In this document: positions 3,001 through 32,178 of the stretch, one piece after another
How the letters are laid out: every line of letters starts with the position of its first letter
Position numbering within the stretch: the first letter of the stretch is position 1
DNA from: Heterodontus francisci
Lineage: Eukaryota
DNA length: 64,000 bases
Assembly: GCF_036365525.1 (NCBI RefSeq)
Contig: NC_090413.1
Span: 7,130,001-7,194,000 of the forward strand
Direction of reading: 5' to 3'
The notes under the pieces: model-generated
Seen by the model: only the letters and a program-made list of their open reading frames with translations
Database searches by the model: none
Told to the model about the DNA's origin: nothing
Made by a program: the position numbers and the translations under genes

Positions 3001-6000
3001 CAATCTTATACGACTCAATGTGATACGACACAATGTGATACGTCACAATGTGATACGACACAATGTGATATGACACAATGTGATATGACACAATGTGATA
3101 CGACTCAATGTGATACGACACAATGTGATACGACACAATGTTATACGACTCAATGTGATACGACACAATGTGATACGACACAATGTGATACGACACAATG
3201 TGATACGACACAATATGATACGACTCAATGTGATACGACACAATGTGATACGACACAATGTTATACGACTCAATGTGATACGACACAATGTGAAACGACA
3301 CAATGTGATACGACACAGTGTGATATGACTCAATGTGATACGACACAATGTGATACGACTCAATGTGATACGACACAATGTGATACGACACAATGTTATA
3401 CGACTCAATGTGATACGACTCAATGTGATACGACACAATGTGATACGACACAATGTGATACGATACAATGTGATATGATACGACGTGATACGACACAATG
3501 TGATACGACACAATGTGATACGACACAATGTGATACGACACAATGTGATACGACTCAATGTGATACGACACAATGTTATACGACACAATGTGATACGATA
3601 CAATGTGATACGATACGATGTGATACGATACGATGTGATACGACACGATGTGATATGACTCAATGTGATACGACACAATGTGATACGACACAATGTGATA
3701 TGACACAATGTGATACGACACAATGTGATACGATACAATGTGATACGATACGATGTGATACGATACGATGTGATACGACACGATGTGATACGACACAATG
3801 TGATACGACACAGTGTGATATGACACGATGTGATACGACACAATGTGATACGACACAGTGTGATACGACACAATGTGATATGACACAATGTGATACGACA
3901 CAATGTGATACGACACAATGTGATACGACACAATGTGATATGACACAATGTGATACGACACAATGTGATACGACACAATGTGATACGATACAATGTGATA
4001 CGATACGATGTGATACGATACGATGTGATATGACACGATGTGATACGACACAATGTGATACGACACAGTGTGATATGACACGATGTGATACGACACAATG
4101 TGATACGACACAGTGTGATACGACACAATGTGATACGACACAATGTGATACGACACAATGTGATACGACACAATGTGATACGACACAATGTGATACGACA
4201 CAATGTGATATGACACAATGTGATACGACACAATGTGATACGACACAATGTGATACGACTCAATGTGATACGACACAATGTTATACGACACAATGTGATA
4301 TGACACGCTGTGATACGACACAATGTGATGCGACACAATGTGATACGACACAATGTGATACGACACAATGTGATACGACACAATGTGATATGACACAATG
4401 TGATACGACACAATGTGATACGACACGATGTGATACGACACAATGTGATATGACACGATGTGATGCGACACAATGTGATACGACACAATGTGATATGACT
4501 CAATGTGATACGACACAATGTGATATGACACAATGTGATACGACACAATGTGATACGTGTGATGTGATACTTGCGATGTGATACGACACAATGTGATACG
4601 ACACGATGTTATGCGACACAATGTGATACGACACAATGTGATACGACACAATGTGATATGGTGCGATGTGAGATGACACAATGTGATACGACACAATGTG
4701 ATGCGACACAATGTGATACGACACAATGTGATACGACACAATGTGATACGGTGCGATGTGAGACGACACAATGTGATACGACACAATGTGATACGATACA
4801 ATGTGATACGATACGATGTGATACGATACGATGTGATACGACACGATGTGATACGACACAATGTGATACGACACAGTGTGATATGACACGATGTGATACG
4901 ACACAATGTGATACGACACAGTGTGATACGACACAATGTGACACGACACAATGTGATACGACACAATGTGATACGACACAATGTGATATGACACAATGTG
5001 ATACGACACAATGTGATATGACACAATGTGATACGACTCAATGTGATACGACACAATGTTATACGACACAATGTGATATGACACGATGTGATACGACACA
5101 ATGTGATGCGACACAATGTGATACGACACAATGTGATATGACACAATGTGATACGACACAATGTGATATGACACAATGTGATACGACACAATGTGATACG
5201 ACACGATGTGATACGACACAATGTGATATGACACGATGTGATGCGACACAATGTGATACGACACAATGTGATATGACTCAATGTGATACGACACAATGTG
5301 ATATGACACAATGTGATACGACACAATGTGATACGTGTGATGTGATACTTGCGATGTGATACGACACAATGTGATACGACACGATGTTATGCGACACAAT
5401 GTGATACGACACAATGTGATACGACACAATGTGATACGGTGCGATGTGAGACGACACAATGTGATACGACACAATGTGATGCGACACAATGTGATACGAC
5501 ACAATGTGATACGACACAATGTGATACGACACAATGTGATACGACACAATGTGATACGACTCAATGTGATACGACACAATGTGATACGACTCAATGTGAT
5601 ACGACACAATGTGATACGACACAATGTGATACGGTGCGATGTGATGCGACACAATGTGATACGACACGATGTGATATGACACAATGTGATACGACACAAT
5701 GTGATACGACTCAATGTGATACGACACAATGTGATACGACTCAATGTGATATGACACAATGTGATACGACACAATGTGATACGACACAATGTGATACGAC
5801 ACAATGTGATACGACTCAATGTGATACGACACAATGTGATACGACTCAATGTGATACGACACAATGTGATACGACACAATGTGATACGACACAATGTGAT
5901 ACGACTCAATGTGATACGACACAATGTGATATGACACAATGTCATACGATACGACGTGATACGACACAATGTGATACGACACAATGTGATACGACACAAT

Positions 6001-9000
6001 GTGATACGACACAATGTGATACGACACAATGTGATACGACTCAATGTGATACGACACAATGTGATATGACACAATGTGATACGATACGACGTGATATGAC
6101 TCAATGTGATACGACACAATGTGATACGACTCAATGTGATACGACACAATGTGATACGACACAATGTGATACGATACGACGTGATATGACTCAATGTGAT
6201 ACGACACAATGTGATACGACTCAATGTGATACGACACAATGTGATACGACACAATGTGATACGATACGACGTGATATGACTCAATGTGATACGACACAAT
6301 GTGATACGACACAATGTGATACGACACAATGTGATACGATACGACGTGATACGACACAATGTGATACGACACAATGTGATACGATGCGACATGATACGAC
6401 ACAATGTTATACGACTCAATGTGATACGACACAATGTGATACGATACGACGTGATACGACACAATGTGATACGACACAATGTGATATGACACAATGTGAT
6501 ACGACACAATGTGATACGACTCAATGTGATACGACACAATGTGATACGACACAATGTTATACGACTCAATGTGATACGACACAATGTGATACGACACAAT
6601 GTGATACGATGCGACATGATACGACACAATGTTATACGACTCAATGTGATACGACACAATGTGATACGATACGACGTGATACGACACAATGTGATACGAC
6701 ACAATGTGATATGACACAATGTGATACGACACAATGTGATACGACTCAATGTGATACGACACAATGTGATACGACACAATGTGATACGACACAGTGTGAT
6801 ATGACACAATGTGATACGACACAATGTGATACGATACGACGTGATACGGCACAATGTGATACGACACAATGTGATACGACACAATGTGATACGACACAAT
6901 GTGATACGACACAATGTGATACGACTCAATGTGATACGACACAATGTGATACGACACAATGTGATACGACTCAATGTGATACGACACAATGTGATACGAC
7001 ACAATGTGATACGACACAATGTTATACGACTCAATGTGATACGACACAATGTGATACGACACAATGTGATACGACACAATGTGATACGACACAATGTGAT
7101 ACGACTCAATGTGATACGACACAATGTGATATGACACAATGTGATACGATACGACGTGATATGACTCAATGTGATACGACACAATGTGATACGACTCAAT
7201 GTGATACGACACAATGTGATACGACACAATGTGATACGATACGACGTGATATGACTCAATGTGATACGACACAATGTGATACGACTCAATGTGATACGAC
7301 ACAATGTGATACGACACAATGTGATACGATACGACGTGATATGACTCAATGTGATACGACACAATGTGATACGACACAATGTGATACGATACGACGTGAT
7401 ACGACACAATGTGATACGACACAATGTGATACGATGCGACATGATACGACACAATGTTATACGACTCAATGTGATACGACACAATGTGATACGATACGAC
7501 GTGATATGACACAATGTGATACGACACAATGTGATATGACACAATGTGATACGACACAATGTGATACGACTCAATGTGATACGACACAATGTGATACGAC
7601 ACAATGTTATACGACTCAATGTGATACGACACAATGTGATACGACACAATGTGATACGATGCGACATGATACGACACAATGTTATACGACTCAATGTGAT
7701 ACGACACAATGTGATACGATACGACGTGATACGACACAATGTGATACGACACAATGTGATATGACACAATGTGATACGACACAATGTGATACGACTCAAT
7801 GTGATACGACTCAATGTGATACGACACAATGTTATACGACTCAATGTGATACGACACAATGTGATACGACACAATGTGATATGACACAGTGTGATATGAC
7901 ACAATGTGATACGACACAATGTGATACGATACGACGTGATACGGCACAATGTGATACGACACAATGTGATACGACACAATGTGATACGACACAATGTGAT
8001 ACGACACAATGTGATACGACACAATGTTATACGACTCAATGTGATACGACACAATGTGATACGACACAATGTGATACGACACAATGTTATACGACTCAAT
8101 GTGATCCGACACAATGTGATACGACACAATGTGATACGACACAATGTTATACGACTCAATGTGATACGACACAATGTGATACGACACAATGTGATACGAC
8201 ACAATGTGATACGACACAGTGTGATATGACACAATGTGATACGACACAATGTGATACGACACAATGTGATACGATACGACGTGATACGGCACAATGTGAT
8301 ACGACACAATGTGATACGACACAACGTGATACGACACAATGTGATACGACACAATGTTATACGACTCAATGTGATACGGCACAATGTGATACGACACAAT
8401 GTGATACGACACAATGTGATACGACTCAATGTGATACGACTCAATGTGATACGACAGAATGTGATACGACACAATGTGATACGATACAATGTGATATGAC
8501 TCAATGTGATACAACACAATGTGATACGTTGCGATGTGATACGACACAATGTGATATGACACAATGTAATACGGTGCGATGTGAGACGACACAATGTGAT
8601 ACGACACAATGTGATACGATACAATGTGATACGATACGACGTGATACGACACAATGTGATACGACACAATGTGATACGATAAAATGTGATACGATACGAC
8701 GTGATACGACACAATGTGATACGACACAATGTGATACGACACAATGTGATACGACACGATGTGATATGACACGATGTGATGCGACACGATGTGATACGAC
8801 ACAATGTGATACGACACAGTGTGATACGACACAGTGTGATACGACTCAATGTGATACGACAGAATGTGATACGACACAATGTGATACGATACAATGTGAT
8901 ATGACTCAATGTGATACGACACAATGTGATACGACACAATGTGATACGATACAATGTGATACGACACAATGTGATACGACACAATGTGATACGACACAAT

Positions 9001-12000
9001 GTGATATGACACAATGTGATACGACACAATGTGATACGACACAATGTGATACGATACAATGTGATACGATACGATGTGATACGATACGATGTGATACGAC
9101 ACGAGGTGATACGACACAATGTGATACGACACAGTGTGATATGACACGATGTGATACGACACAATGTGATACGACACAGTGTGATACGACACAATGTGAT
9201 ACGACACAATGTGATATGACACAATGTGATACGACACAATGTGATACGACACAATGTGATACGACACAATGTGATATGACACAATGTGATACGACACAAT
9301 GTGATACGACACAATGTGATACGACTCAATGTGATACGACACAATGTTATACGACACAATGTGATATGACACGCTGTGATACGACACAATGTGATGCGAC
9401 ACAATGTGATACGACACAATGTGATACGACACAATGTGATACGACACAATGTGATATGACACAATGTGATACGACACAATGTGATACGACACGATGTGAT
9501 ACGACACAATGTGATATGACACGATGTGATGCGACACAATGTGATACGACACAATGTGATATGACTCAATGTGATACGACACAATGTGATATGACACAAT
9601 GTGATACGACACAATGTGATACGTGTGATGTGATACTTGCGATGTGATACGACACAATGTGATACGACACGATGTTATGCGACACAATGTGATACGACAC
9701 AATGTGATATGACACAATGTGATATGGTGCGATGTGAGATGACACAATGTGATACGACACAATGTGATGCGACACAATGTGATACGGCACAATGTGATAC
9801 GACACAATGTGATACGGTGCGATGTGAGACGACACAATGTGATACGACACAATGTGATACGATACAATGTGATACGATACGATGTGATACGATACGATGT
9901 GATACGACACGATGTGATACGACACAATGTGATACGACACAGTGTGATATGACACGATGTGATACGACACAATGTGATACGACACAGTGTGATACGACAC
10001 AATGTGATACGACACAATGTGATACGACACAATGTGATACGACACAATGTGATATGACACAATGTGATACGACACAATGTGATATGACACAATGTGATAC
10101 GACTCAATGTGATACGACACAATGTTATACGACACAATGTGATATGACACGATGTGATACGACACAATGTGATGCGACACAATGTGATACGACACAATGT
10201 GATATGACACAATGTGATACGACACAATGTGATATGACACAATGTGATACGACACAATGTGATACGACACAATGTGATACGACACGATGTGATACGACAC
10301 AATGTGATATGACACGATGTGATGCGACACAATGTGATACGACACAATGTGATATGACTCAATGTGATACGACACAATGTGATATGACACAATGTGATAC
10401 GACACAATGTGATACGTGTGATGTGATACTTGCGATGTGATACGACACAATGTGATACGACACGATGTTATGCGACACAATGTGATACGACACAATGTGA
10501 TACGACACAATGTGATACGGTGCGATGTGAGACGACACAATGTGATACGACACAATGTGATGCGACACAATGTGATACGACACAATGTGATATGACACAA
10601 TGTGATACGACACAATGTGATACGACACAATGTGATACGACACAATGTGATACGACTCAATGTGATACGACACAATGTGATACGACTCAATGTGATACGA
10701 CACAATGTGATACGACACAATGTGATACGGTGCGATGTGATGCGACACAATGTGATACGACACGATGTGATATGACACAATGTGATACGACACAATGTGA
10801 TACGACTCAATGTGATACGACACAATGTGATACGACTCAATGTGATATGACACAATGTGATACGACACAATGTGATACGACACAATGTGATACGACACAA
10901 TGTGATACGACTCAATGTGATACGACACAATGTGATACGACACAATGTGATACGACTCAATGTGATACGACACAATGTGATACGACACAATGTGATACGA
11001 CACAATGTGATACGACTCAATGTGATACGACACAATGTGATATGACACAATGTCATACGATACGACGTGATACGACACAATGTGATACGACACAATGTGA
11101 TACGACACAATGTGATACGACACAATGTGATACGACACAATGTGATACGACTCAATGTGATACGACACAATGTGATATGACACAATGTGATACGATACGA
11201 CGTGATATGACTCAATGTGATACGACACAATGTGATACGACTCAATGTGATACGACACAATGTGATACGACACAATGTGATACGATACGACGTGATATGA
11301 CTCAATGTGATACGACACAATGTGATACGACTCAATGTGATACGACACAATGTGATACGACACAATGTGATACGATACGACGTGATATGACTCAATGTGA
11401 TACGACACAATGTGATACGACACAATGTGATACGACACAATGTGATACGATACGACGTGATACGACACAATGTGATACGACACAATGTGATACGATGCGA
11501 CATGATACGACACAATGTTATACGACTCAATGTGATACGACACAATGTGATACGATACGACGTGATACGACACAATGTGATACGACACAATGTGATATGA
11601 CACAATGTGATACGACACAATGTGATACGACTCAATGTGATACGACACAATGTGATACGACACAATGTTATACGACTCAATGTGATACGACACAATGTGA
11701 TACGACACAATGTGATACGATGCGACATGATACGACACAATGTTATACGACTCAATGTGATACGACACAATGTGATACGATACGACGTGATACGACACAA
11801 TGTGATACGACACAATGTGATATGACACAATGTGATACGACACAATGTGATACGACTCAATGTGATACGACACAATGTGATACGACACAATGTGATACGA
11901 CACAGTGTGCTATGACACAATGTGATACGACACAATGTGATACGATACGACGTGATACGGCACAATGTGATACGACACAATGTGATACGACACAATGTGA

Positions 12001-13935
12001 TACGACACAATGTGATACGACACAATGTGATACGACTCAATGTGATACGACACAATGTGATACGACACAATGTGATACGACACAATGTTATACGACTCAA
12101 TGTGATACGACACAATGTGATACGACACAATGTGATACGACACAATGTTATACGACTCAATGTGATACGACACAATGTGATACGACACAATGTGATACGA
12201 CACAATGTGATACGACACAATGTGATACGACTCAATGTGATACGACACAATGTGATATGACACAATGTGATACGATACGACGTGATATGACTCAATGTGA
12301 TACGACACAATGTGATACGACTCAATGTGATACGACACAATGTGATACGACACAATGTGATACGATACGACGTGATATGACTCAATGTGATACGACACAA
12401 TGTGATACGACTCAATGTGATACGACACAATGTGATACGACACAATGTGATACGATACGACGTGATATGACTCAATGTGATACGACACAATGTGATACGA
12501 CACAATGTGATACGATACGACGTGATACGACACAATGTGATACGACACAATGTGATACGATGCGACATGATACGACACAATGTTATACAACTCAATGTGA
12601 TACGACACAATGTGATACGATACGACGTGATATGACACAATGTGATACGACACAATGTGATATGACACAATGTGATACGACACAATGTGATACGACTCAA
12701 TGTGATACGACACAATGTGATACGACACAATGTTATACGACTCAATGTGATACGACACAATGTGATACGACACAATGTGATACGATGCGACGTGATACGG
12801 CACAATGTGATACGACACAATGTGATACGACACAATGTGATACGACTCAATGTGATACGACTCAATGTGATACGACACAATGTTATACGACTCAATGTGA
12901 TACGACACAATGTGATACGACACAATGTGATATGACACAGTGTGATATGACACAATGTGATACGACACAATGTGATACGATACGACGTGATACGGCACAA
13001 TGTGATACGACACAATGTGATACGACACAATGTGATACGACACAATGTGATACGACACAATGTTATACGACTCAATGTGATACGACACAATGTGATACGA
13101 CACAATGTGATACGACACAATGTTATACGACTCAATGTGATCCGACACAATGTGATACGACACAATGTGATACGACACAATGTTATACGACTCAATGTGA
13201 TACGACACAATGTGATACGACACAATGTGATACGACACAATGTGATACGACACAGTGTGATATGACACAATGTGATACGACACAATGTGATACGACACAA
13301 TGTGATACGATACGACGTGATACGGCACAATGTGATACGACACAATGTGATACGACACAACGTGATACGACACAATGTGATACGACACAATGTGATACGA
13401 CACAATGTTATACGACTCAATGTGATACGGCACAATGTGATACGACACAATGTGATACGACACAATGTGATACGACTCAATGTGATACGACTCAATGTGA
13501 TACGACAGAATGTGATACGACACAATGTGATACGATACAATGTGATATGACTCAATGTGATACAACACAATGTGATACGTTGCGATGTGATACGACACAA
13601 TGTGATATGACACAATGTGATACGGTGCGATGTGAGACGACACAATGTGATACGACACAATGTGATACGATACAATGTGATACGATACGACGTGATACGA
13701 CACAATGTGATACGACACAATGTGATACGATAAAATGTGATACGATACGACGTGATACGACACAATGTGATACGACACAATGTGATACGACACAATGTGA
13801 TACGACACGATGTGATATGACACGATGTGATGCGACACGATGTGATACGACACAATGTGATACGACACAGTGTGATACGACACAGTGTGATACGACTCAA
13901 TGTGATACGACACAGTGTGATACGACTCAATGTGA
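1..13935. repeat. 15-bp satellite (CAATGTGATACGACA)n, ~930 units, running off the left window edge
   Basis: Direct reading. The unit resolves into three related pentamers (GATAC/GACAC/AATGT). Recurrent variants are TATGAC, ACTCAA, TTATAC and GATACGACGT. Phase breaks occur at ~4555, 5333, 9621 and 10414. Confidence 0.98.
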
Positions 13936-14234: not shown

Positions 14235-14531
14235 AGAATGCCCGGATCAGGACACAGAATGTCTAGACCAGGGGACAGAATGTCTAGACCAGGAGACAGA
14301 ATGTCTAGAGCAGGGGAAAGAATGTCTAGACCAGGAGACAGAATGTCTAGACCAGGAGACAGAATGTCTAGAGCAGGGGAAAGAATGTCTAGAGCAGGGG
14401 AAAGAATGTCTAGACCAGGAGACAGAATGTCTAGAGCAGGGGAAAGAATGTCTAGACCAGGAGACAGAATGTCTAGACCAGGAGACAGAATGTCTAGAGC
14501 AGGGGAAAGAATGCCTGTATCAGGAGACAGA
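14235..14531. repeat. 21-bp minisatellite (CCAGGAGACAGAATGTCTAGA)n, left half
   Basis: About 14 tandem 21-bp units, with variant GCAGGGGAAAGAATGTCTAGA. Same unit as 22627-22842. Confidence 0.95.
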
Positions 14532-16280: not shown

Positions 16281-18308
16281 GAACATAGGAACATAGAACT
16301 TTGGAGCAGGAGTAGGCCATTCAGCCCATCAAGACTGCTCCACTATTCAACTTGATCATGGATGATCATCCACTTCAATGCCTTTTTCCACACACTATCT
16401 TCATATCCCCTTATGCCATTTGTATTTAGAAATCTGTCAATCTCTGCTTTAAACATACTCAATGACTGAGCTTCCACAGCCCTCTGGGATAGAGAATTCC
16501 AAAGATTCACAACCCTCTGAGTAAAGAAATTTCTCCTCATCTCTGTCCTAAGTGACATCTCCCTTATTTTGAAATTGTGTCCCCTGGTTCTAGACTCTCC
16601 AGACAAGGGAAACATCTTAGCTGCATCTACCCTGTCTATACCTTTAAGCATTTTGTAGGTTTCAATGAGATCACTTCTCACTCTTCAAAACTCTAGAGAA
16701 TACAGGCCCAGTTTCCCCAATCTCTCTTCATAGGACAGTCCCACCATCCTAGGAACAAGTCTGGTGAACCTTCATTGCACTCCCTCTATGGCAATAATAC
16801 CTTCCTAAGGTAAGGGGATCAAAACTGCTCACAGTACTCCAGGTGCAGTCTAACCAAGGTTCTATACAACTGAAGCAAGACTTCACTATTCCTGTATTCA
16901 GATCCTCTTGCAATAAAGGCAAACATACCATTAGCCTTCCTAATTTCTTGCTGCACCTGCATGTTAGCTTTCAGTGATTTATGGACAAAGACACCCAGGT
17001 CCCTTTGTGCATCTACACTTTCTAATCTCTGACCATTTAAGAAATACTCTGCACATCTATTCCTCCTAATAAAATGGATAACCTCATATTTCTCCACATA
17101 TTCCATTTACCATGTTCTTGCCCACTCACTAAGTCTGTCCAAATCCCCTTGAAGTCACTTTGCATCTTCCTCACAACACACATTCCCACCTAGTTTTGTG
17201 TCATCTGCAAACTTGGAAATATTACATTTGGTCCCCACATCCAAATCATTGATATATATTGTGAACAGCTGGGGCCCCAGGTACTGATCCCTGTGGTACC
17301 CCATTAGTCACAGCCTGCCAACGCGAGAATGACCCATTTATTCCTACTCTCTGCTTTCTGCCTGTGAACCACTCCTTCACCCATGCCAGGATATTACCTC
17401 CTATCCCATGTGCTTTAAATTTTGCTAACCAACCTTATGTGAGAACTTTATCAAAAGCCTTTTGAAAATCCAAGTATACCACGTCTACCGACTCCCCTTT
17501 GTCAATTCTGTTAGTAACATCCTCAAAAAACTCCAACAGGTTCGTCAAACATGATTTCCCATTCATAAATCCATGTTGACTATGTCCAATTGGATCATTA
17601 TTATCCAAGTGTCCATTTATCACATCCTTTAGAATATATTCTAACATTTTCCCTACGACTGATATAAGGCTAACAGATCTGTACTTCCCTGTTTTCTCTC
17701 TCCCTCCCTTCTTAAATAGTGGGGTGACATTTTCTTCCTTCCAATCTGCAGGAACCACTCCAGAATCTATAGAATTTTGGAAGATGATCACCAATGCATC
17801 CATTATCTCCATAGCTACCTCTTTCAACACTCTGGGATGTAGAATATCAGGTCCTGGGGACTTATCAACCTTCAACCCCATTAATTTCTCCAATACAACC
17901 TTCTTACTCATACTAATTTCCTTCAATTCCTCATTCTCCCTTGGATCTCTAATTTTGGGAAATTTGTTGTATATTCCTCAGTGAATTTAGACACAAAGCA
18001 ATCATTTAGCTTCTCTGCCATTTCTCTATTCCCCATTATAAATTCTTCTGACTCTGCCTGTAATGGACCCCCATTTGTCTTAGCCAAACGTTTCCTTTTT
18101 ATGTACCTATAGAAGCTTTTACAGTAGGTTATTATATTTTTTGCTAGCTTACATTTATATTCTATTCTCCCTTTCTTTATCAGTTTCTTGGTCCTCCTTT
18201 GCTGTATTCTAAAATCCTCCCAAACCTCAGGTTTACTACTATTTCTGGTAACTTTATAAGCCTTTTCTTTTCATCTTATATAATCCTTAACTTCCTTTGT
18301 TAGCCATT
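16281..18308 (-). mobile_element. CR1 LINE, 5'-truncated ~2 kb, frameshifted RT
   Basis: Fragments KSPGPD-LHPRVLKE, QHGFMNGKSCLTNLLEFFE, VDVVYLDFQKAFDKV and RNFFTQRVVNLWN. GAACATAG tail repeats at 16281. Confidence 0.95.
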
Positions 18309-19416
18309 GAGGCAATGAACAGCTCCCTTATATCTGCCTTCAAATTGCAGCCAGGTAGAAGACACACCCACTGTCATTTGCCTCTTCCCACTCTCCTTGC
18401 ATCTGTAAGTGGCCACCTGGTTTCCATTATAATTGGAGAAAATGGTGCACATGGAATCCAACCTTCTGCAACCTTCCAGCTTGAACCCACCACCTATGTT
18501 ACCCACCCAATGTTACCTTCCCTCCATTACCATTGAGCCTCCCTCCATTACCATACACAATGTAATCATCAACGTATTTATGCCATCCCTTCTCCTCCCT
18601 GTTCCTACTCCCATTACTATCAACATGCCGACTCTTACTATTGAACCTCCTCACATTGAACTGACCATTGTTGTTGAATCCCATTCCCCTCCATACGAAG
18701 CTGTCGAATACCCTCCCATTAGTGTTGACCTTCTCCCCTACAGAATCCATTTGTCCCCATTGACTGTGACCATTCCCTCTGTTAGTCAGTACTCTCAAGT
18801 TGCCCCACAGCTCCCCGATGTCGACATCACTCATCCCTCCGTGAAGGCCATTGCCGACTATTTTCTGACTGTAATGTTCTAATCAATCGACCACCCCCAC
18901 AGCCGACCACATCCAGCTTGAGCAGCATTAGCAACCATTACACACCCTGGACGCTCTGCTCCACCGCCCCCCCACCCCCTCCCGCTACTCCATGAAGACC
19001 CCCCCAATGCCTTCACCACCATCCCCTGAGATTATCACCCTTGCTGGAGCCAAACCTGGAAGGAAACATCCATTCCAATGCTGGCGTTCATTTTGAAGAT
19101 GAGTTAAAGAGAGAACAACACAGACCTGAGACTCAACTGCACAAAGCAGACTGTTTGCAGGCCACGGTGAAACAATTGTGTACCAGGTGGCACGGGAATA
19201 GCGCTCACTGTTCATTTAATCTGGCAGGTAGGACTGAACAGTAACTAAGTGTAGGGTAATGAATATTCATGGTATGTAAATGAATGCAAAGCTGCAATCT
19301 GCCACCATGCAGGAGGAGCCCCAGAACACTTAGAAGTAGAATTAGAATTAGAACATTACAGCGCAGTACAGGCCCTTCGGCCCTCGATGTTGCGCCGACC
19401 TGTGAAACCATCTGAC

Positions 19417-22311
19417 CTACACTGTTCCATTTTCATCCATATGTCTATCCAATGACCACTTAAATGCCCTTAAAGTTGGCGAGTCTACTACTGTTGCAGG
19501 CAGGGCGTTCTACGCCCCTACTACTCTCTGAGTAAAGAAACTACCTCTAACATCTGTCCTATATCTATCACCCCTCAGCTTAAAGCTATGTCCCCTCGTG
19601 TTTGCCATCACCATCCGAGGAAAAAGACTCTCACTATCCACCCTATCTAACCCTCTGATTATCTTATATGTCTCTATTAAGTCACCTCTCCTCCTCCTTC
19701 TCTCTAACGAAAACAACCTCAAGTCCCTCAGCCTTTCCTCGTAAGACCTTCCCTCCATACCAGGCAACATCCTAGTAAATCTCCTCTGCACCCTTTCCAT
19801 AGCTTCCACATCCTTCCTATAATGCGGTGACCAGAACTGCACGCAATACTCCAGGTGCGGTCTCACCAGAGTTTTGTACAGCTGCAGCATGACCTTGTGG
19901 CTCCGAAACTCGATCCCCCTACTAATAAAAGCTAACACATCATATGCCTTCTTAACAGCCCTATTAACCTGGGTAGCAACCTTCAGGGATTTATGCACCT
20001 GGACACCAAGATCTCTCTGTTCATCTACACTACCAATAATCTTCCCATTAGACCAGTACTCTGCATTCCTGTTACTCCTTCCAAAGTGAATCACCTCGCA
20101 CTTTTCCGCATTAAACTCCATTTGCCATCTCTCAGCCCAGCTCTGCAGCCTATCTATGTCCCTCTGAACCCTACAACATCCTTCGGCACTATCCACAACT
20201 CCACCGACCTCAGTGTCATCCGCAAATTTACTAACCCACCCTTCTACACCCTCTTCCAGGTCATTTATAAAAATGACAAACAGCAGTGGCCCCAAAACAG
20301 ATCCTTGCGGTACACCACTAGTAACTAAACTCCAGGATGAACATTTGCCATCAACCACCACCCTCTGTCTTCTTTCAGCTAGCCAATTTCTGATCCAAAG
20401 CTCTAAATCACCTTCAACCCCATACTTCCGTATTTTCTGCAATAGCCTACCGTGGGGTACCTTATCAAACGCCTTACTGAAATCCATATACACCACATCC
20501 ACTGCTTTACCCTCATCCACCTGTTTGGTCACCTTCTCAAAAAACTCAATAAGGTTGGTGAGGCACGACCTACCCGTCACAAAACCGTGCTGACTATCGC
20601 TAATGAACTTATTCTTTTCAAGATGATTATAAATCCTGTCTCTTATAACCTTTTCCAACATTTTACCCACAACCGAAGTAAGGCTCACAGGTCTATAATT
20701 ACCAGGGCTGTCTCTACTCCCCTTCTTGAACAAGGGGACAACATTTGCTATCCTCCAGTCTTCCGGCACTATTCCTGTCGACAATGACGACATAAAGTTC
20801 AAGGACAAAGGCTCTGCAATCTCCTTCCTAGCTTCCCAGAGAATCCTAGGATAAATCCGATCTGGCCCAGGGGACTTATCTATTTTCACACTTTCCAAAA
20901 TTGATAACACCTCCTCCTTGTGAACCTCAATCCCATCTAGCCTAGTAGCCTGAATCTCAGTATTCTCCTCGACAACATTTTCTTTCTCTACTGTAAATAC
21001 TGACGCAAAATATTCATTTAACACTTCCCCTATCTCCTCTGATTCCACACACAACTTCCCACTACTATCCTTGATTGGCCCTAATCTAACTCTCGTCATT
21101 CTTTTATTCCTGATATACCTATAGAAAGCCTTAGGGTTTTCCCTGATCCTACCCGCCCATGACTTCTCGTGTCCTCTCCTTGCTCTTCTTAGCTCTCCCT
21201 TTAGATCCTTCCTGGCTAGCTTGTAACTTTCAAGCGCCCTAACTGAGCCTTCACGTCTCATCCTAACATAAGCCTTCTTCTTTCTCTTGACAAGCGCTTC
21301 AACTTCTTTCGTAAACCACGGCTCCCTCGCTCGACAACTTCCTCCCTGCCTCACAGGTACATACTTATCAAGGACACGCAGTAGCTGCTCCTCGAATAAG
21401 CTCCACATTTCGATTGTTCCCATCCCCTGCAGTTTCCTTCCCCATCCTACACATCCTAAATCTTGCCTAATCGCATCATAATTTCCTTTCCCCCAGCTAT
21501 AATTTTTACCCTGCGGTATATACCTGTCCCTGCCCATCGCTAAGGTAAACCTAACCGAATTGTGATCACTATCACCAAAGTGCTCACCTACATCTAAATC
21601 TAACACCTGGCCGGGTTCATTACCCAGTACCAAAACCAATGTGGCATCTCCCCTGGTTGGCCTGTCTACATACTGTGTCAGAAAACCCTCCTGCACACAC
21701 TGGACAAAAACTGACCCATCTAAAGTACTCGAACTATAGTATTTCCAGTCGATATTTGGAAAGTTAAAGTCCCCCATAACAACTACCCTGTTACTCTCGC
21801 CCCTGTCGAGAATCATCTTCGCTATCCTTTCCTCTACATCTCTGGAACTATTTGGAGGTCTATAAAAGACTCCCAACGGGGTGACCTCACCTCTCCTGTT
21901 TCTAACCTCGGCCCATACTACCTCAGTAGACGAGTCCTCAAACGTCCTTTCTGTCGCTGTAATACTCTCCTTGATTAACAATGCCACACCCCCCCCCCCT
22001 CTTTTACCATCTTCTCTGTTCTTACTGAAACATCTAAATCCCGGAACCTGCAACATCCATTCCTGGCCCTGCTCTACCCATGTCTCCGAAATGGCCACAA
22101 CATCGAGATCCCAGGTACCAACCCATGCTGCAAGCTCACCCACCTTATTCCAGATGCTCCTGGCGTTGAAGTAGACACACTTTAAACCAGGTTCTTGCTT
22201 GCCAGTGCCCTCTTGCGTCCTTGTAACCTTATCCCTGACCTCACTACTCTCAACATCCTGTACACTGGCACTACATTTTAGGTTCCCATTCCCCTGCTGA
22301 ATTAGTTTAAA
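19417..22311 (-). pseudogene. CR1 ORF2 (APE endonuclease + reverse transcriptase) with a single nonsense mutation
   Basis: Open from 22311 to 19513. Motifs: FNARS, AISETW, GDFN, SDH, KSPGPD, QHGF, GVPQGSVLGP, FADD. TAG at 19512-19510 replaces the conserved W of RVVxxWNALP. The frame continues NALPATVVDSPTLRAFKWSLDRHMDENGTV to TAG at 19419-19417. Confidence 0.93.
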
Positions 22312-22500
22312 CCCCCCCGAAGAGCACTAGCAAATCTCCCCCCCAGGATATTGGTACTCCTCTGGTTCAGGTGAAGACCATCCTGTTTGTAGAGGTCCCA
22401 CCTACCCCAGAAACAGCCCCAATTATCCAGGAAACCAAAACCCTCCCTCCTGCACCATCCCTGCAGCCACGTGTTCAACTCCTCTCTCTCCCTTTTCCTC
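22302..22500 (-). pseudogene. CR1 ORF1 C-terminus (SGNH esterase-like)
   Basis: Translation ...DGLHLNQRSTNILGGRFASALRGGLN* with the DxxH esterase motif. TAA at 22304-22302. Confidence 0.85.
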
Positions 22501-22626
22501 GCTTCTTTGCCGACTTAATTTCTCTAAAATATCCCTCCAACAGGAATCTGAAAAAAAACTCCTGCTTAATTAAATCCCCCCACACGCCACCAAATCTGCT
22601 CTTGCAGAGCCCATAAAATTCCATCC

Positions 22627-22842
22627 AGAATGTCTGGACCAGGAGACAGAAGGTCTGGACCAGGAGACAGAATGTCTGGACCAGGAGCAGAAGGTCTGGA
22701 CCAGGAGACAGAATGTCTAGACCAGGAGACAGAATGTCTAGACCAGGAGACAGAAGGTCTGGACTAGGAGACAGAAGGTCTGGACCAGGAGACAGAATGT
22801 CTGGACTAGGAGACAGAAGGTCTGGATCAGGAGACAGAATGT
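22627..22842. repeat. 21-bp minisatellite (CCAGGAGACAGAATGTCTGGA)n, right half
   Basis: About 10 units of the same monomer as 14235-14531. Confidence 0.95.
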
Positions 22843-23335: not shown

Positions 23336-25597
23336 TCAGTCATCCTTCATCCGCTCTCTGACATCTAAAGGAAGGGCTTGAAACAAAGATTCCTCCACAA
23401 TGAGGGCTCTGCGGGTCAGGCTGCTGCACTCGCCCACCTCAGGGGGCAACACATCCAGGTGATTGCCCTTCAGTTCCAGCCTTGCCAGCAGGGACAGGCT
23501 TGTGATTCTGGGCGAGAGGGCAGTTAGACAATTGTGGGCAACCTTCAGCGTCTTCATTTTCTTACAAAAGAATAGCTCATTGGGCAGAGACTCGACGCTG
23601 TTGTAGGAAATGGAAAAGTATTGGAGGTTTTGAAGGACGCCGATTTCCGGGGGGATTGAACTGATGCGATTGTGAGAGAAGTCCAGATGTCGGAGTTTGT
23701 TGCACAGGAAGAGTTGTGGGGGTATGTGCTCAATCTGATTATTGTTGAGATAAAGGCATTCCAAAGAGCTGAGCTTTTTGATATGTTCGGGAATGTAGAC
23801 GATATGATTATACCACAGCTTCAGGCACGTTAGTTTGTGGCAGTGTTGGAGGCTGAGGATTTCCTCAATGGATCGGAGGTTGTTGTCCTTCAAGTTGAGC
23901 TCCTCTAAATTCAAGAGGCTGAACACAGTGTGAGGGATGTGCTCGAGCTCGCAGTTAATGAGCTCCAACTCCCTGAGCTGCTGCAGCTTCTTCAGGCTGT
24001 TCAATGTCATGAGTTTGGTGCCATTGTTGTGGATGGTCAACTTCTGAAGGTGGCTGGCAACCTCCACCAGGTTTGGAGGGATCTTGGTCAAGTTGCTCTT
24101 CAGAGAGAGGACCTTAAGACTATGAAGCTCACCAAGAGAATCGAGGAAAAGGCATTTTGCACTATCTTGAGTCAGCGAGCCTGTGAGATAGAGTTCCTCC
24201 ACATTTCTCATGGTGTGTGCCCAGACAGGAATCTCCTGGCTGCTGTTGAAACGGATCTGGAGGACTTTGAGATGCTCCCTCAAAAAACCCAATGCAGCCA
24301 CATGAAGTTTGATGGGACAGTTCAACAACGCCAACTCCTGAAGGTTGACTAACTGCACAGTCTTTGCTGGCAACTCGAGATCACTAATCAATTCTAGTTT
24401 CAGGGACTCGATTTCAGTCACCTCGAAGGTGGAAGTGGGAACTCCCGGAGCCATAAACAGATGGAGCTCAAGACGGTTCTGGCTGTTCCTCTGCAGCCTC
24501 TGCCGTAGCTTATCCTCGGTCCATTCATGGTTCAGGTTCAGCTGCATCAACTTACTCTCACTAACTTCAGAGAGAAAGACAGCAAACCTCTTGGAGTACA
24601 GAGAATCGTACTGGTCTATCAGGTGAAGCATGAAGGCAAAATCATTCTTCACATCCGGAATATCGCTGATCCCCGACTCCTGCCGCACATATTCAAAGGA
24701 ATATTCCTTGAGGGGTCGGTAGAAGAGCCAGTACAGGGTATAGAGGCAGGTGCAGCCATACACTGACACAAAGCAGATGTAGCAGACGGCTAGTTTGAAG
24801 AAAAGATGGGCCTTTGTGTGATTGCAACAGAAATTGTTGTAACCAGTCACATCCTTAATATTGACTGTGCAGGGAACCACAACATGTATGTTCAGAACCA
24901 GTGACGCATTGTAAAGGATTATCACGACGAACTTGAGAACCCGGACAATTGTTTGCCGAATGTACATTACGTAAAGGATGTCTCCTTCCTCCACATGCAG
25001 CCGGAACTTCTTCACCTTTTCGAACAAAGCCTTGGCCTGCTCGCCCTCCTTTTTATCGAGTGCACTCAGGCTCCCCTTGTCCACAACCACTTTATCCACA
25101 CTGGACTGGATACCCGGAGATTCAACGAAACTGACCTCTTCAGTGGGCAACCTGGACTCAGACTTGGAGTTGGACCGAGACAAGAAATCCAGTGACCGAC
25201 TTTGCTGCGCTTTCTCCTGATTCTCACTCGAAACCTCACTCAGCGCCCGCGTTGTCCATGGGGAGTCGAAGCACTTGCCCAAAATGGAAACAAAGTGCTC
25301 AATTTTGGAGCTGGTTCCTGGGAACTTGAACCAAAAGCTGCCACAGATCATGAAGATGAGGGTGTGCATGAGCACCAGATACGGAAAGTATTTGGCGTAC
25401 CAGTGAAGGGCTTTCTCATAACAGATCTGGTTAATGAAGCTATATTGCTGCAGGTCCAGGTTGGTCTTTAACCCATTCATTTCATGTCTTGAGCTAGTTG
25501 AGGGCTTTAGTTGCATCATGAACTCGGAACAATTGATATGCAACTCTGAGTGTGCAGATGAAGGTCCAGGGAGACAGATAATCTTGTCTTGCGTCAC
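23336..25597 (-). CDS. LRRC8E: LRRC8E-like VRAC subunit, large last coding exon (753 aa; pannexin-like TM region + LRRs)
   Basis: Acceptor ...ttctgtttAG|GTG ACG CAA GAC. Motifs: [84 protein letters not shown], LRRs. E-type rather than C-type states: VTQ, GTSSK, FCCNHTK, RPLKEY, QYDSLY, SES, LNHEW. TGA at 23338-23336. The LRRC8C/E clade is certain; E versus C is by eye. Confidence 0.85.
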
Positions 25598-25789
25598 CTA
25601 AACAGAAGGAAATGGTTGGTTTCAATTCATACAGACGCAGTAGACACATGGTTACACCTCAGTGTATATTCGTCCTAACCCCTGTATATGAGTATCATAA
25701 TGTGTATATTGACCCTGTGTATATGAATAGCACTGTGGGTATATTGATCCTGTCTGAGTGTATATTCATCATGTTTGCATCTTTATAAG

Positions 25790-28372
25790 AATAATTTGGG
25801 ACAAAATTAATAGTCACATGGACAAATGCGAGTTAACTAAGGAAAGCCAGCATGGATTTCTTAAGGGAAAATCATGCTTAACTAATTTGCTGGAGTTTTT
25901 TTGAGGAGGTAACAGAGAGGGTTGATGAGGGAAATGCTGTTAACGTGGTGTACATGGACTTTCAAAAGGCATTTGATATAGTGCCTCACAACAGACTTGT
26001 GAGCAAAGTCAACATGGATTTACAAAAGGGAAATCATGCTTGACAAATCTACTGGAATGTTTTGAGGATGTAACTAGTAGAATAGATAAGGGAGAACCAG
26101 TGGATGTGGTGTATTTGGACTTTCAGAAGGCTTTCGATAAGGTCCCACATAAGAGATTAGCATGCAAAATTAAAGCACATAGGATTGGGGGTAAGGTACT
26201 GACATGGATAGAGAACTGGTTGGCAGATAGGAAACAAAGAGTAGGAATAACCAGGTCTTTTTCCGAGTGGCAGGTAGTGACTAATGGGGTACCGCAGGGA
26301 TCAGTGCTAGGACCCCAGCTATTCACAATATATATTAATGATATAGATGAGGGAATTAAATGTAATATATCCAAATTTGCAGATGACACAAAGCTGGGTG
26401 GGAGTGTGAGCTGTGAGGAGGATGCAGAGAGGCTTCAGTGTGATTTGGACAGGTTGAGTGAGTGGGCAAATACATGGCAGATGCAGTATAATGTGAATAA
26501 ATGTGAGGTTATTCACTTTGGTTGTAAAAATTGAAAGACAGATTATCTGAACAGCGATAGATTGGGAAAGGGGGAGGTGCAGCGAGACCTGGGTGTCCTT
26601 GTGCACCAGTCGCTGAAAGTAAGCATGCAGATGCAGCAGGCAGTTAAGAAGGCAAATGGTATGTTGGCCTTCATAGCGAGAGGATTCGAGTACAGGAGCA
26701 AGGATGTCTTGCTGCAATTATACAGGGTCTTGATGAGACCACATCTGGAGTATTGTCTGTGGTTTTGCTCTCCATATCTGAGGAAGGATGTTCTTGCTAT
26801 ACAGGGAGTGCAGCGAAGGTTTACCAGACTGATTCCTGGGATGGTAGGACTGACGTGTGAAGAGAGATTGAGTCGATTAGGCTTATATTCACTAAAGTTG
26901 AGAAGAATAAGAGGGGATCTCATAGAAACCTACAAAATTCTAACAGGACTGGACAGACTCGATGCAGGAAGGATGTTCCCAATGGCGGGGGGGTCCAGGA
27001 CCAGGGGTCACAATCTAAGGATAAGGGGTAAGCCATTTAGGACTGAGATGAGGAGAGATTTCTTCACCCAGAGTGTGGTGAACCTGTGGAATTTTCTACC
27101 ACAGAAAGCAATTGAGGCCAAATCGTTAAATATATTCAAGAATGAGTTAGATATAGTTCTTAGGGCTAATGGGATCAAGTGATGTGGGGAGAAAGCGGGA
27201 ACAGGGTACTGAGTTTGGATGATCAGCCATGATCGTATTGAATGGCGGTGCAGGCTCGAAGGGCCGAATGGCTCCTATTTTCTATGTTTCTATGTTATAG
27301 TTCATGGAATAAAAGGAACGGTAGCAACATGGATACGAAATTGGTGGAGTGATAGGAAACAAAGAGTAGTGGTTAATGGATGTTTTTTGGGCTGGAGGAA
27401 GGCTTGTAGTGGAGTTCCCCAGGGATCAGTGTTGGGACCCTTGCTTTTCCTGATATATTTTAATGGCCTAGACCTTGTTATCAAAGTTTGCAGTTGATAC
27501 GCATTGTGAAATGTGAGGAGGATAGTGCAGAAATTCAAAAGGGCATAGACAAGTTGGTGGAATGGGCAGACAGGTGGCAGATGAAGTTTAACGCAGAGAA
27601 ATGCAAAGTGATTCATTTTGTTAGGAAGAACATGGAGAGACAATATAGAATAAAGTGTATAATTCTAAAAGGGGTGCAAGAGCAGAGGGACCTGGGTGTA
27701 TATGTGCGTAAGTCATTAAAGGTGACAGGACAGGTTGAGAGAGCGGTTAATAAAGCATACAGTATCCTGGGCTTTATTAATAGGGGCATAGAGTACAAGA
27801 GCAATGAAGTTATATTGCACTTGTACGGCCTCAGCTGGAGTATTGCGTCCAGTTCAGGGCGCTGCACTTGAGGAAAGACGTGAAGGTACTGGAGAGAGTA
27901 CAGAAAAGATTTGCAAGAAAGATTCCAGGGATGAGCAACTTCAGTTACAAAGATAGATTGGAGAAGTTGGGAAGTTTTCCTTGGAGAAGAGAAGGCTGAG
28001 AGGTGATTTGATAGAGGTATTCAAAATCATGAGGGGTCCGGACAGAGAGAAACTGTTCCCATTGGTGGAAGGATCGAGGACGAGAGGGCACAGATTTCAA
28101 GTATTTGGTAAGAGAAGCAAAAGTGACATGAGGAAAAACTTTTTCACACAGCAAGTGGTTAAGGTCTGGAATGCACTGCCTGAGGACGTGGTGGAGGCAG
28201 GTTCAATTGAAGCACTTAAAAGGGAATTAGACAGTTATATGAAAAGGAAGAATGTGCAGGGTTACGAGGAGAAAGTGGGGGGAATGGCACTAGTATAACT
28301 GCTCTTTTGGAGAGCCGGTGCAGACACGATGGGCCGATTGGCCTCCTTCTGCACTGTAACAATTCTGTGATT
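25790..28372 (+). mobile_element. CR1 LINE fragment A, interrupted by a younger CR1 at ~26009
   Basis: RT coding reads ...PHNRLVSKV|IVHGIKGTVATWIRNW... across the insert. 3' UTR ends CTGCACTGTAACAATTCTGTGATT. Confidence 0.9.
26007..27295 (+). mobile_element. CR1 LINE fragment B nested in A
   Basis: ORFs 26040-26534 and 26562-27182 are the CR1 RT and C-terminus. (TTTCTATG)n tail at ~27280-27295. Confidence 0.95.
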
Positions 28373-30997
28373 TTATATTGATCCCATGTGAGTGTACATT
28401 GGCCTTGTGTGAGTGTGTGTATTGATCCTATTTTGGTATATTGATCCCATTTGTGTGTGAATATTGATGCTGTATGAGTACATTGTTCCTGTGTGTGTAT
28501 ATTGATCCTGTATGCGTACATTGTTCCTGTGTGTGTGTATAACTCCTGTGTGTGTATATATTGATCCGGTGTGTGTATATTGATCCTTTGTTTGTATATA
28601 TTGATCCTGTGTGTGTATATTGACCCTGTATGTGTACATTGTACCTGTGTGTGTATATTGATCCTGTGTGTACATTGTTCCTGTGTGTGCATATTGATCC
28701 TGTGTGTATATATATCGATCCTGTATGTGTACATTGTTCCTGTGTGTATTGATCCTGTGTATATGCATATTGACCTGTGTGCGTGTATTGATCCAGTGTG
28801 TGTGTATTGATCCAGTGTGTGTGTGTATTGATCCAGTGTGTGTGTGTGTGTATGGATCCAGTGTGTGTATATTGATCCTGTGCGTGTGTATATTGATCCT
28901 GTGCATGTGTAGATTGATCCTGTGTGTGTATATCGATTGTGTGTGTGTGTACATTAATCCTGTGTGTGTACATATTGATTCAGTGTGTGTGTATATTGAT
29001 CCAGTTTGTGTGTGTATTGATCCAGTGTGTGTGTATATTGATCCTGTGTGTGCATATATTGATCCTCTCTGTGCATATTGATCTTGTGTGTGAGTATATT
29101 GATCCTGTGTCTGTGTATATTGATCCTGTATGTGTGCATATTGATCCAGTGTGTGTGTATTGATCCTGTGTGTGTGTGTGTTAATTGATCCTGTGTGTGT
29201 GCATATTGATCAAGTGTGTACATTGATCCTGTGTGTGTATATTTATCCTGTGTGTATATTGATATGTGTACATTGATCCCATTTGTGTGTATATTGATCC
29301 TGTGTGTGTGTATATATTGATCCTGTGTATGCACATTGATCTTGTGTGTGTATATTGATCCTGTGTGTGTACATTGATCCTGTGTGTGTATATTGATCCT
29401 GTGTGTGTGTGTATTGATCCTGTGTGCGCATATTGATCCAGTGTATGTGTGTATTGATCCAGTGTGTGTGTGTGTGTGTGTGTGTATTGGTCCAGTGTGT
29501 GTGTGTGTATTGATCCAGTGTGTGTATATTGATCCTGTGCGTGTGTATATTGATCCTGTGTGTATGTAGATTGATCCTGTGTGTGTATATTGATCCTGTG
29601 TGTGTATATTGATTGTGTGTGTGTGTACATTAATCCTGTGTGTGTATATTGATTCTGTGTGTGCATATTGATCTTGTGTGTGAGTATATTGATCCTGTGT
29701 TTGTGTATATTGATCCTGTATGTGTGCATATTGATCCAGTGTGTGTATTGATCCTGTGTGTGCGTGTGTGTGTGTGTATTGATCCTGTGTGTACATTGAT
29801 CCTGTGTGTGTATATTGATCCTGTGTGTATATTGATATGTGTATATTGATCCTGTGTGTGTATAATGATCCTGTGTGTGTGCATATATTGATCCTGTGTG
29901 TGCATATTGATCTTGTGTGTGTATATTGATCCTGTGTGTGTACATTGATCCTGCATGTGTATATCGATCCTGTGTGTGTACATTGATCCTGTGTATGTAT
30001 ATTGATCCTGTGTGTGTATATTGGTCCTGTGTGTGCATATTGATCTTGTGTGTGAGTATATTGATCCTGTGTGTGTATTTTGATCCTGTGTGTGTATATT
30101 GATCCTGTGTGTATATTGATCCTATGTGTGTGTATATTGATCTTGTGTCTGTGTATATTGATCCTGTATGTGTGCATATTGATTCAGTGTGTGTGTATAT
30201 TGATCCAGTGTGTGTGTATATTGATCCAGTGTGAATGGGTATTGATCCTGTGTGTGTATATTGATCCTGTGTGTGCATATTGATCTTGTGTGTGAGTATA
30301 TTGATCTTGCGTGTGCATATTGATCCTGTGTGTGTATTTTGATCCTGTGTGTGTATATTGATCCTGTGTGTGTATATTGATCCTGTGTGTGTATATTGAT
30401 CCTGTGTGTGTGTATATTGATCTTGTGTCTGTGTATATTGATCCAGTGTGTGTGTATATTGATCCTGTGTGTATGGGTATTGATCCTGTGTGTGTATTTT
30501 GATCCTGTGTGTGTATATTGATCCTGTGTGTGTGTATATTGATCTTGTGTCTGTGTATATTGATCCTGTATGTGTGCATATTGATTCAGTGTGTGTGTAT
30601 ATTGATCCAGTGTGTATGGGTATTGATCCTGTGTGTGTATATTGATCCTGTGTGTGCATATTGATCTTGTGTGTGAGTATATTGATCTTGTGTGTGCATA
30701 TTGATCCTGTGTGTGTATTTTGATCCTGTGTGTGTATATTGATCCTGTGTGTGTGTATATTGATCTTGTGTCTGTGTATATATTGATCTTGTGTCTGTGT
30801 ATATTGATCCTGTATGTGTGCATATTGATTCAGTGTGTGTGTATATTGATCCAGTGTGTGTGAATATTGATCCTGTGTGTGTGTATATATTGATCTTGTG
30901 TCTGTGTATATTGATCCTGTATGTGTGCATATTGATTCAGTGTGTGTGTATATTGATCCTGTATGTATGGGTATTGATCCTGTGTGTGTATTGATCC

Positions 30998-31028
<31 letters not shown>

Positions 31029-31035
31029 TGATCCT
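28372..31035. repeat. Intronic compound minisatellite TATATTGATCC(TG)n, unit ~17-25 bp
   Basis: Recurrent ATTGATCC core separated by variable TG tracts. Degenerate copies also occur at ~25660-25770. Confidence 0.97.
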
Positions 31036-31085
31036 GACCCTGTAGTGAGTCTAATGGTACTGATGTGTCACTATCAGTTCCCTAC

Positions 31086-31599: not shown

Positions 31600-32178
31600 A
31601 GAATCACATAATTGTTACAGTGCAGAAGGAGGCCATTCGGCCCATCATGTCTGCACCAGCTCTCTGAATGAACAATTCACTCAGTTTCATTCCCCTGCCT
31701 TCTCCCCATAACCCTGCACATTCTTCCTTTTCATATAACTGTCTAATTCCATTTTGAATGCTTCAATTGAACCTGCCTCCACCACACACCCGGGCAGCAC
31801 ATTCCAGACCTTAACCACTCGCTGCATGAAAATGTTTTCCCTCATGTCCCCATTGTTTCTTTTACCCATTACTTTAAATCTGTGCCCTCTCGTTCTCAAT
31901 CCTTTCAAAAGTGGGAACAGTTTCTCTCTATCTACTCTGTCCAGATCCCTCATGATTTTGAATACCTCTATCAAATCACCTCTCAGCCTTCTTTTCTCTC
32001 CAGAAAATTGTCCTAATTCTCCAAACTATCTTCATAACTGAAATTCCTCATCCTAGGAACCATTCTCGTGAATCTTTTCTGTACACTCTCCAATGCCCTC
32101 ACGTCCTTTCTAAAGTGTGACACCCAGAACTGGACACAAAAGTCCAGCTGAGTTGTGTCTTACAGAAATTCTCTTGTA
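31600..32178 (-). mobile_element. CR1 LINE 3' fragment C (same subfamily as A); remnant resumes at ~33182-33215
   Basis: ORF 31687-31974 is the CR1 C-terminus. The 3' UTR is ~90% identical by eye to the reverse complement of the end of A. INRGIEYKSKE coding resumes after the Penelope insert. Confidence 0.9.

Follow-up and report, generated by a model that had tools for sequence, protein, structure and literature searches.

How is the second open reading frame (ORF2) of a CR1-type long interspersed nuclear element (LINE) translated when it has no usable start codon? The question is raised by a locus of Heterodontus francisci (assembly GCF_036365525.1, contig NC_090413.1, positions 7,130,001 to 7,194,000 of the forward strand), a stretch of 64,000 nucleotides referred to here as the window and numbered from its first base. 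A 5'-truncated CR1-type LINE copy, marked by an esterase tail, an ORF2 encoding an endonuclease and a reverse transcriptase (RT), and a short-repeat tail, occupies 19337..22505 on the minus strand, its 5' boundary being approximate. We suggest that LINEs of this esterase type probably express ORF2 by programmed ribosomal frameshifting of the −1 type (−1 PRF) on the two final codons of ORF1, the expected product being a fusion of ORF1, endonuclease and RT.

On the minus strand, the ORF1 frame of this copy ends GGG GGT TTA AAC TAA, with the heptamer T TTA AAC at 22311–22305 in X XXY YYZ register and adjoined by the stop codon at 22304–22302. The −1 frame opens just five codons upstream of the heptamer and belongs to a single stop-free stretch from 22326 to 19510 (938 codons, FKLIQQGNGNLK...GLKCVYFNARSIWNKVGELAAW) with Pfam matches to endonuclease and RT. 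A linker of 42 codons of the −1 frame without Met or stop (22186..22311) leads from the heptamer to the apurinic-like endonuclease of ORF2 (21562..22185; LKCVYFNARS ... SETW ... GDFN ... SDHN; Pfam Exo_endo_phos, E 1.5e-15), and the RT domain lies at 20029..20724 (Pfam RVT_1, E 3.7e-36). The first in-frame ATG (22054..22056) is codon 91, starting at 22056, 3' of the NARS and SETW motifs, which carry catalytic residues of apurinic/apyrimidinic endonucleases (APE). The other seven ATGs within 22360–22040 are all out of the ORF2 frame, and no AUG of the reinitiation type, overlapping or near the ORF1 stop, occurs in this copy before codon 91; near-cognate start codons in the linker are ATT at 22302 and ACG at 22218. 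The initial annotation of the locus, which had described the in-register heptamer, the open −1 frame into ORF2 and the absence of an early ATG, is borne out on all of these points. The string TTTAAACTAR occurs once in the window against 0.02 expected, and inside ORF2 just 1 of 939 codon positions has a slippery heptamer in register, so that chance is not expected to place one on the two final codons of ORF1.

The element qualifies as an esterase-type CR1-clade LINE by its ORF1 esterase, its ORF2 with APE endonuclease and RT, and its short-repeat tail without poly(A), an assignment made from these sequence features, the tree built being that of the ORF1 esterase. The tail consists of short ATTCTA-type repeats (19337..19354), similar to the bird CR1 3' repeat ATTCTRTG (PMC2612034). 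The ORF1 remnant (22302..22505) is the C-terminal part of an SGNH/GDSL esterase ending G-L-N-stop. Alone it gives a weak Pfam Lipase_GDSL_2 match under the cut-off (E 5e-4); over the 70 residues preceding the stop, identity with the C-terminal end of the full-length esterase ORF1 P0001 is 83%, and PF13472 is present in ORF1 homologs. Named homologs are from sharks, rays, chimaera, frogs and eel, with more distant ones from sturgeon, turtles, lizards and snake. This copy retains no more than about 67 codons of ORF1, and the similarity to its family ends near 22505, as indicated by loose contig ends, a truncation absent from the initial annotation. The TAG closing the ORF2 frame (19510..19512) is likely a premature stop of this copy, because the frame stays open for 30 more codons beyond it. 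Being 5'-truncated and carrying a likely premature ORF2 stop, the copy itself therefore cannot make ORF1 or a fusion, and the frameshift claim concerns the source elements of the family.

We therefore turn to relatives of the junction, of which 31 distinct ones were obtained from animal DNA in genome and metagenome collections (13 + 2 + 16 copies in one assembly). Left out of this count were duplicates of the same place, contigs ending before the ORF1 stop (e.g. L049, L055, L058, L062, L064 and L069), weak esterase matches, several of them apparently bacterial (e.g. L014, L080 and L091), and esterase matches ending without a heptamer. This last group comprises L046, whose distant endonuclease carries an AUG of its own, and L052/L053, L061, L065 with its near-copies, L072, L074, L076 and L093, downstream of which no endonuclease was found. 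The heptamer reads T TTA AAC in 28 of the 31 junctions, T TTA AAG in two and G GGA AAC in one, locus L048, where the sequence is CAG GGA AAC TAG. Seven lineages (the window copy, L050, L073, L048, L063, L004 and L001), whose ORF1 tails are 15–41% identical apart from one pair at 58%, all keep an X XXY YYZ heptamer. Their terminal Leu codon is TTA in 6/6 and their Asn codon AAC in 7/7, against pooled background use of 0.096 for TTA among Leu codons and 0.489 for AAC among Asn codons. The codon before the Leu differs in each of the six (GGT, CAT, GCT, ACT, TAT and TTT) and always ends in T; the codon before GGA is CAG. As controls, three other conserved Leu columns of ORF1 use three to four codons each, and of the control columns just 1 of 14 (ORF1) and 1 of 25 (endonuclease) is fixed. 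Retention of Leu-Asn for protein function was considered and ruled out, the codon choice being fixed at just these two codons. The endonuclease starts in the −1 frame in 22 of the 28 related copies that have it in view; the other six have indels. Thus the heptamer and its −1 relation to ORF2, which had been noted in one copy, are conserved in related copies and in seven distant lineages, at synonymous sites where control codons vary. No relatives were found in viral contigs or in plasmid and phage collections, and 178 of the 179 genomes in the family of G001 gave no match. Animal CR1 elements also sit inside records labelled as bacteria (the MAG contigs of L001–L012, L004 being on one of 1.4 Mb, and the Pseudomonas protein P0002), reflecting host contamination of public assemblies.

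A second body of evidence comes from ORF1 proteins. Of 265 protein matches, 165 had the esterase DGxH motif and a tail of 18–50 residues, and dereplication at 70% left 62 tails. Among the 165, 126 end in -LN and 8 in -GN; among the 62, the numbers are 28 and 7, with 27 ending otherwise. The residue before -LN is never E, Q, K, M or W, the residues without a T-ending codon (0/28 versus 25/84 at the three preceding positions; Fisher p 4e-4), and the residue before -GN is Q in 7/7. Proteins ending at T TTA AAC or at G GGA AAC would show just this pattern. Both G_GGA_AAC and U_UUA_AAC are named among the most shifty heptamers (PMC5009743, accessible text). In an esterase tree computed with the tails left out, every -QGN protein falls in a single clade (99/95), alongside -LN members; the swap therefore took place one or more times and was later reversed. 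In a teleost outgroup clade the tails end otherwise. In another esterase clade (P0231, P0261, P0264, P0217, P0220 and P0244), K-N or F-L/F-F precedes the ORF1 stop by a few residues, as would be expected if the heptamer were A AAA AAC or U UUU UUN, an observation made on proteins. Three ORF1s within an -LN clade end in -SN (P0108, P0187 and P0215) and may be decayed copies or use a non-canonical site. A search for long natural ORF1-ORF2 fusions returned three matches, all single-member, which are evidence neither for nor against a fusion: P0281 passes from ORF1 to the −1 frame, apparently through an indel of one copy, and in P0282/P0283 the esterase sits at the C-terminus. Two gene models of rays, P0281 and P0025, contain a CR1 copy that continues from ORF1 in the FKL frame of the linker; one of the two is named hydroxyacid oxidase 2.

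Variation within the family was examined by comparing contigs from four runs over 22100–22520, runs X20–X24, which had small word shares, being left out. In run X1 (3,971 contigs), 21 places differed at a level of at least 4%. Among the 16 of these 21 that are listed, none lies within 22277–22314 and none creates an in-frame ATG. The three T's of T TT, including the synonymous Gly position, are unchanged at the 4% level, because all four changes from a plus-strand A fall elsewhere, an observation that covers neither 22305–22308 nor the stop. In run X5, from a different organism, summed depth peaks solely at 22280–22339 and 22415–22474, and the two DNA runs both show loose contig ends concentrated at 22281 (41 and 49 contigs). 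The junction with the following 24 nt thus stands out as an island where families resemble each other in DNA, and it is one of two such islands in the contigs of the second organism.

The island includes a G-rich block 3' of the stop (22281..22301, ending where family similarity breaks off in contigs from two organisms), a candidate stimulator judged by its conserved positions. The stop directly follows the heptamer in 6/7 lineages, being TAG in most relatives and TAA in this copy. Counted from the heptamer, the seven lineages have G at +8, A at +10 and G at +14 in 7/7, and G at +11 and +13 in 6/7; in the −1 frame, +8, +11 and +14 fall on third codon positions, for which the background of G is 0.25. 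A run of G from +11 to +14 (22294–22291 in this copy, within the G-rich block) is present in 5/7 lineages, moved to +13 in L048 and missing in L063; such a run is also compatible with a G-quadruplex or with coding constraint. L063, the sole lineage of the seven without an adjacent stop and without the G-run, has its stop ten codons further on and carries a 14-bp hairpin starting 10 nt past the heptamer (z −4.9; 0/200 shuffles), the textbook arrangement of a frameshift site, in one locus. A common small hairpin about 28 nt past the heptamer was seen in the tetrapod-type loci L051, L057, L066 and L073, too distant for a canonical stimulator. No Rfam family matched at the junction. G-quadruplexes were predicted by ViennaRNA in 2 of 15 junctions, and one is unsupported for this copy because its G4Hunter score of 0.92 is reached by 31% of ORF2 windows.

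The conservation of the G-rich block could also mean that the motif serves as a signal in RNA or DNA for some other function, such as ribonucleoprotein assembly, RNA stability or reverse transcription, ORF2 being translated by internal or non-AUG initiation in the linker. The G's held at third positions of the −1 frame without a predicted structure fit this idea, as do the near-cognate codons of the linker; those codons are not conserved, and a signal of this kind gives no reason for the codon register with the end of ORF1 or for the alternation of two known shifty heptamers, which makes it a very improbable explanation. Slightly less credible still is that a spliced or subgenomic RNA provides ORF2 with a start codon and that the junction is a splice site. 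The TAG after the heptamer in most relatives could serve as a 3' splice AG, and G-runs are known splicing elements; against this stand the TAA of this copy and the lack of a pyrimidine tract upstream of the site. Two RNA-type contig sets list no joint at the junction, a weak negative given that contigs drop rare forms and that the label "RNA" is guessed. A splice donor after the stop was also considered and ruled out, as it fits just some loci.

A number of observations weigh against −1 PRF as the route to ORF2, beginning with how two of the figures in its favour should be taken. The joint chance of the junction codons, about 9e-13 under pooled codon use if the seven lineages were independent, is an overstatement because the lineages share ancestry. 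Likewise, the linker up to N(A)RS spans 35–90 codons and has 0 stops over 510 codons in the −1 frame versus 27 and 58 in the other frames (11 intact representatives, window included), a count that is partly circular because the copies were selected as intact. G GGA AAC and the hairpin are each known from one DNA locus, all -QGN proteins are confined to one clade, and the 27 of 62 tails that end otherwise mean that the signal is not universal among esterase elements. The downstream region offers little structure. In this copy the sequence 3' of the heptamer folds no better than shuffles; five folds of window stretches gave z from −1.35 to +1.69, in keeping with the earlier statement that no 3' pseudoknot is obvious, although no dedicated pseudoknot predictor was used. 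Across the set, 14 of 15 folded junctions were without 3' structure, bar a marginal L054 (z −2.3 at 100 nt). A search for long-range partners of the G-block (eight loci, five shuffles each) did no better than shuffles in 6/8; in L004 the best partner (−21.9) barely passes the best shuffle (−21.5), and in L063 the best partner is its hairpin. Finally, an AUG is present in the linker of 8 of 22 in-frame related copies, and in 4 of 10 tetrapod-type loci an AUG stands two bases past the stop in the ORF2 frame.

LINE ORF2s are generally explained by reinitiation. The linker AUGs of some relatives keep reinitiation alive as a rival or second route, in which ORF2 would be made as a separate protein by termination-reinitiation just past the ORF1 stop, at an AUG or any codon, with the conserved bases positioning the terminating ribosome. 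Such a route suits the stop adjacent to the heptamer in 6/7 lineages and the AUG two bases beyond it in tetrapod-type loci (with GTG or TTG in three more), and it also accounts for the open linker. It has been reported for SART1, where a downstream element is involved, and for L1, where it can be AUG-independent (PMC5972666, PMC5009743; partial texts). The codon two bases past the stop in other lineages is, by contrast, CAG, AGG, AAG, GGG or TCG. A conserved upstream AUG, which would have favoured a start of this kind, was sought and none was found: 4/7 lineages lack any AUG before NARS, and the AUGs elsewhere lie at unrelated places, with L048 and L063 having a Met at the endonuclease start after 49–64 open codons. 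Reinitiation also leaves the upstream X XXY YYZ form unexplained, including the joint swap of the last base of the −3 codon with the Leu/Gly codon, as well as L063, with its stop ten codons on and a hairpin at frameshift distance. We consider it unlikely as the explanation of the junction.

Programmed −1 frameshifting is thus the reading we favour, and the fusion proposed in the initial annotation gains support of a comparative kind, namely the conservation of the heptamer and the −1 frame, the swap in L048 and the hairpin in L063. Ribosomes would decode UUA in the P site and AAC in the A site, and a fraction of them would slip one base back, to UUU AAA, instead of terminating. The slipped ribosomes would go on with CUA into the linker and ORF2, with the junction reading G-L-N | L-I-Q-Q-G, and the product would be an ORF1-endonuclease-RT fusion at a low ratio to free ORF1 protein. 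The most weakly grounded part of the scheme is the stimulus, a pause that might be caused by the stop codon together with a G-rich motif, linear and 11 nt downstream, and not by a pseudoknot; the motif would be a protein-binding site or a G-quadruplex, and one lineage would use an ordinary hairpin in place of the stop and G-run. More broadly, and as a tentative proposal that we regard as less likely than the frameshift itself, esterase CR1 elements from sharks to tetrapods and other animals may make a Gag-Pol-like fusion through a structure-free stimulator (the adjacent stop and, 11 nt downstream, the G-run, to which a host protein or the ORF1 protein itself would bind) that would be evolutionarily interchangeable with a plain hairpin. 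If true, the structure-free stop and G-run would represent a cellular −1 stimulator of a new class, and a membrane-binding esterase would be tied directly to a reverse transcriptase. A fusion would also change ORF2 annotation, the start being at the heptamer and not at an AUG, would set the ORF1:ORF2 ratio, and would explain the loading of the ORF2 protein into the particle. CR1 is widespread in vertebrates other than birds as well. In birds it is the main interspersed repeat, making up 11.8% of chicken chromosomes (PMC11835228, partial text), and the junction offers a short, testable frameshift cassette seemingly without the usual RNA structure.

The remainder of the window is largely repetitive. 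Its other CR1 pieces end short of the ORF1/ORF2 junction; they include diverged 3' fragments at 16508–18327 (−), 25788–27083 (+), 27264–28160 (+) and 31813–32150 (−), about 30–65% identical to this ORF2. An LRRC8-like gene with a 753-codon open frame (Pannexin_like domain and leucine-rich repeats) lies at 23336–25597 (−), and the CR1 copy is found about 830 bp beyond its stop on the same strand, possibly inside its 3' untranslated region. A related 21-bp minisatellite forms two arrays, at 22626–22842 and 14248–14531, one of them about 120 bp upstream of the 5' end of the CR1 copy. Satellite DNA, with unit sizes of 15/30/45, about 20/40, 28 and 44 bp, fills most of the window (1–13935, 28374–31036, 35418–42132 and 42862–63997).

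Comparison with known systems begins with the CR1-clade LINEs that carry a type IV ORF1 (chicken CR1 and the ZfL2-1-like esterase elements), which share with this element the SGNH esterase ORF1, the ORF2 with APE and RT, the short-repeat 3' tail and 5' truncation. In the accessible portions of the published accounts of this clade, two ORFs are described, no route is given for ORF2 translation and frameshifting goes unmentioned. No proposal of frameshifting for CR1 was found in the open literature searched, the coverage of which did not extend to the original 1997 CR1 papers, Kapitonov and Jurka 2003 and Kojima 2005, which may already raise the idea; the term "CR1" is absent from the accessible part of PMC5009743. 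Parts of PMC4700185, PMC2699510, PMC2734521, PMC8665684, PMC3905857, PMC4120745 and PMC5006619 were also drawn on. With SART1 and L1 the element has in common a bicistronic LINE RNA and an ORF2 close after the ORF1 stop; unlike them, this CR1 copy has no stop-start overlap or nearby AUG, and they, in the texts at hand, are not described as keeping a slippery heptamer. With viral −1 PRF (coronavirus-type U_UUA_AAC, retroviral gag-pol; PMC3542737, PMC5009743, partial texts) it shares an in-register X_XXY_YYZ heptamer that ends a structural ORF, and an enzyme ORF in the −1 frame without its own start. It differs in having an adjacent stop and, in 6/7 lineages, no hairpin or pseudoknot 5–9 nt downstream, and in belonging to a LINE, an element without a protease to process a fusion. 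A nearby stop is required at an umbravirus site (PMC5009743, accessible text). As −1 PRF is defined in the available text of PMC3542737, an X_XXY_YYZ heptamer is part of the textbook signal together with a 3' structure 5–9 nt downstream. Of the canonical eukaryotic features, the heptamer in zero-frame register, the open −1 frame into a conserved ORF and synonymous-site conservation are present here, and a hairpin or pseudoknot about 5–9 nt downstream is absent from this copy. The site would thus work like a viral −1 frameshift site, while most lineages fall outside the canonical class in lacking the 3' structure. A parallel for a stimulator without structure is PRRSV (the virus of porcine reproductive and respiratory syndrome) nsp1beta/PCBP, in which a linear motif lies 11 nt 3' of the shift site in place of a structure (PMC5009743, partial text), and the CR1 G-run starts at +11 too. 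The PRRSV motif is C-rich and that of CR1 G-rich, and the likeness is one of spacing only. G-quadruplexes in synthetic constructs are reported to stimulate shifting. Finally, the review PMC5911963 states that in TRE5-A and TRE3-A, non-LTR (long terminal repeat) retrotransposons of Dictyostelium, ORF2 depends on a −1 frameshift; frameshifting in a LINE therefore has a precedent, in elements that share with CR1 an ORF2 encoding APE and RT and differ from it in clade and in ORF1 type.

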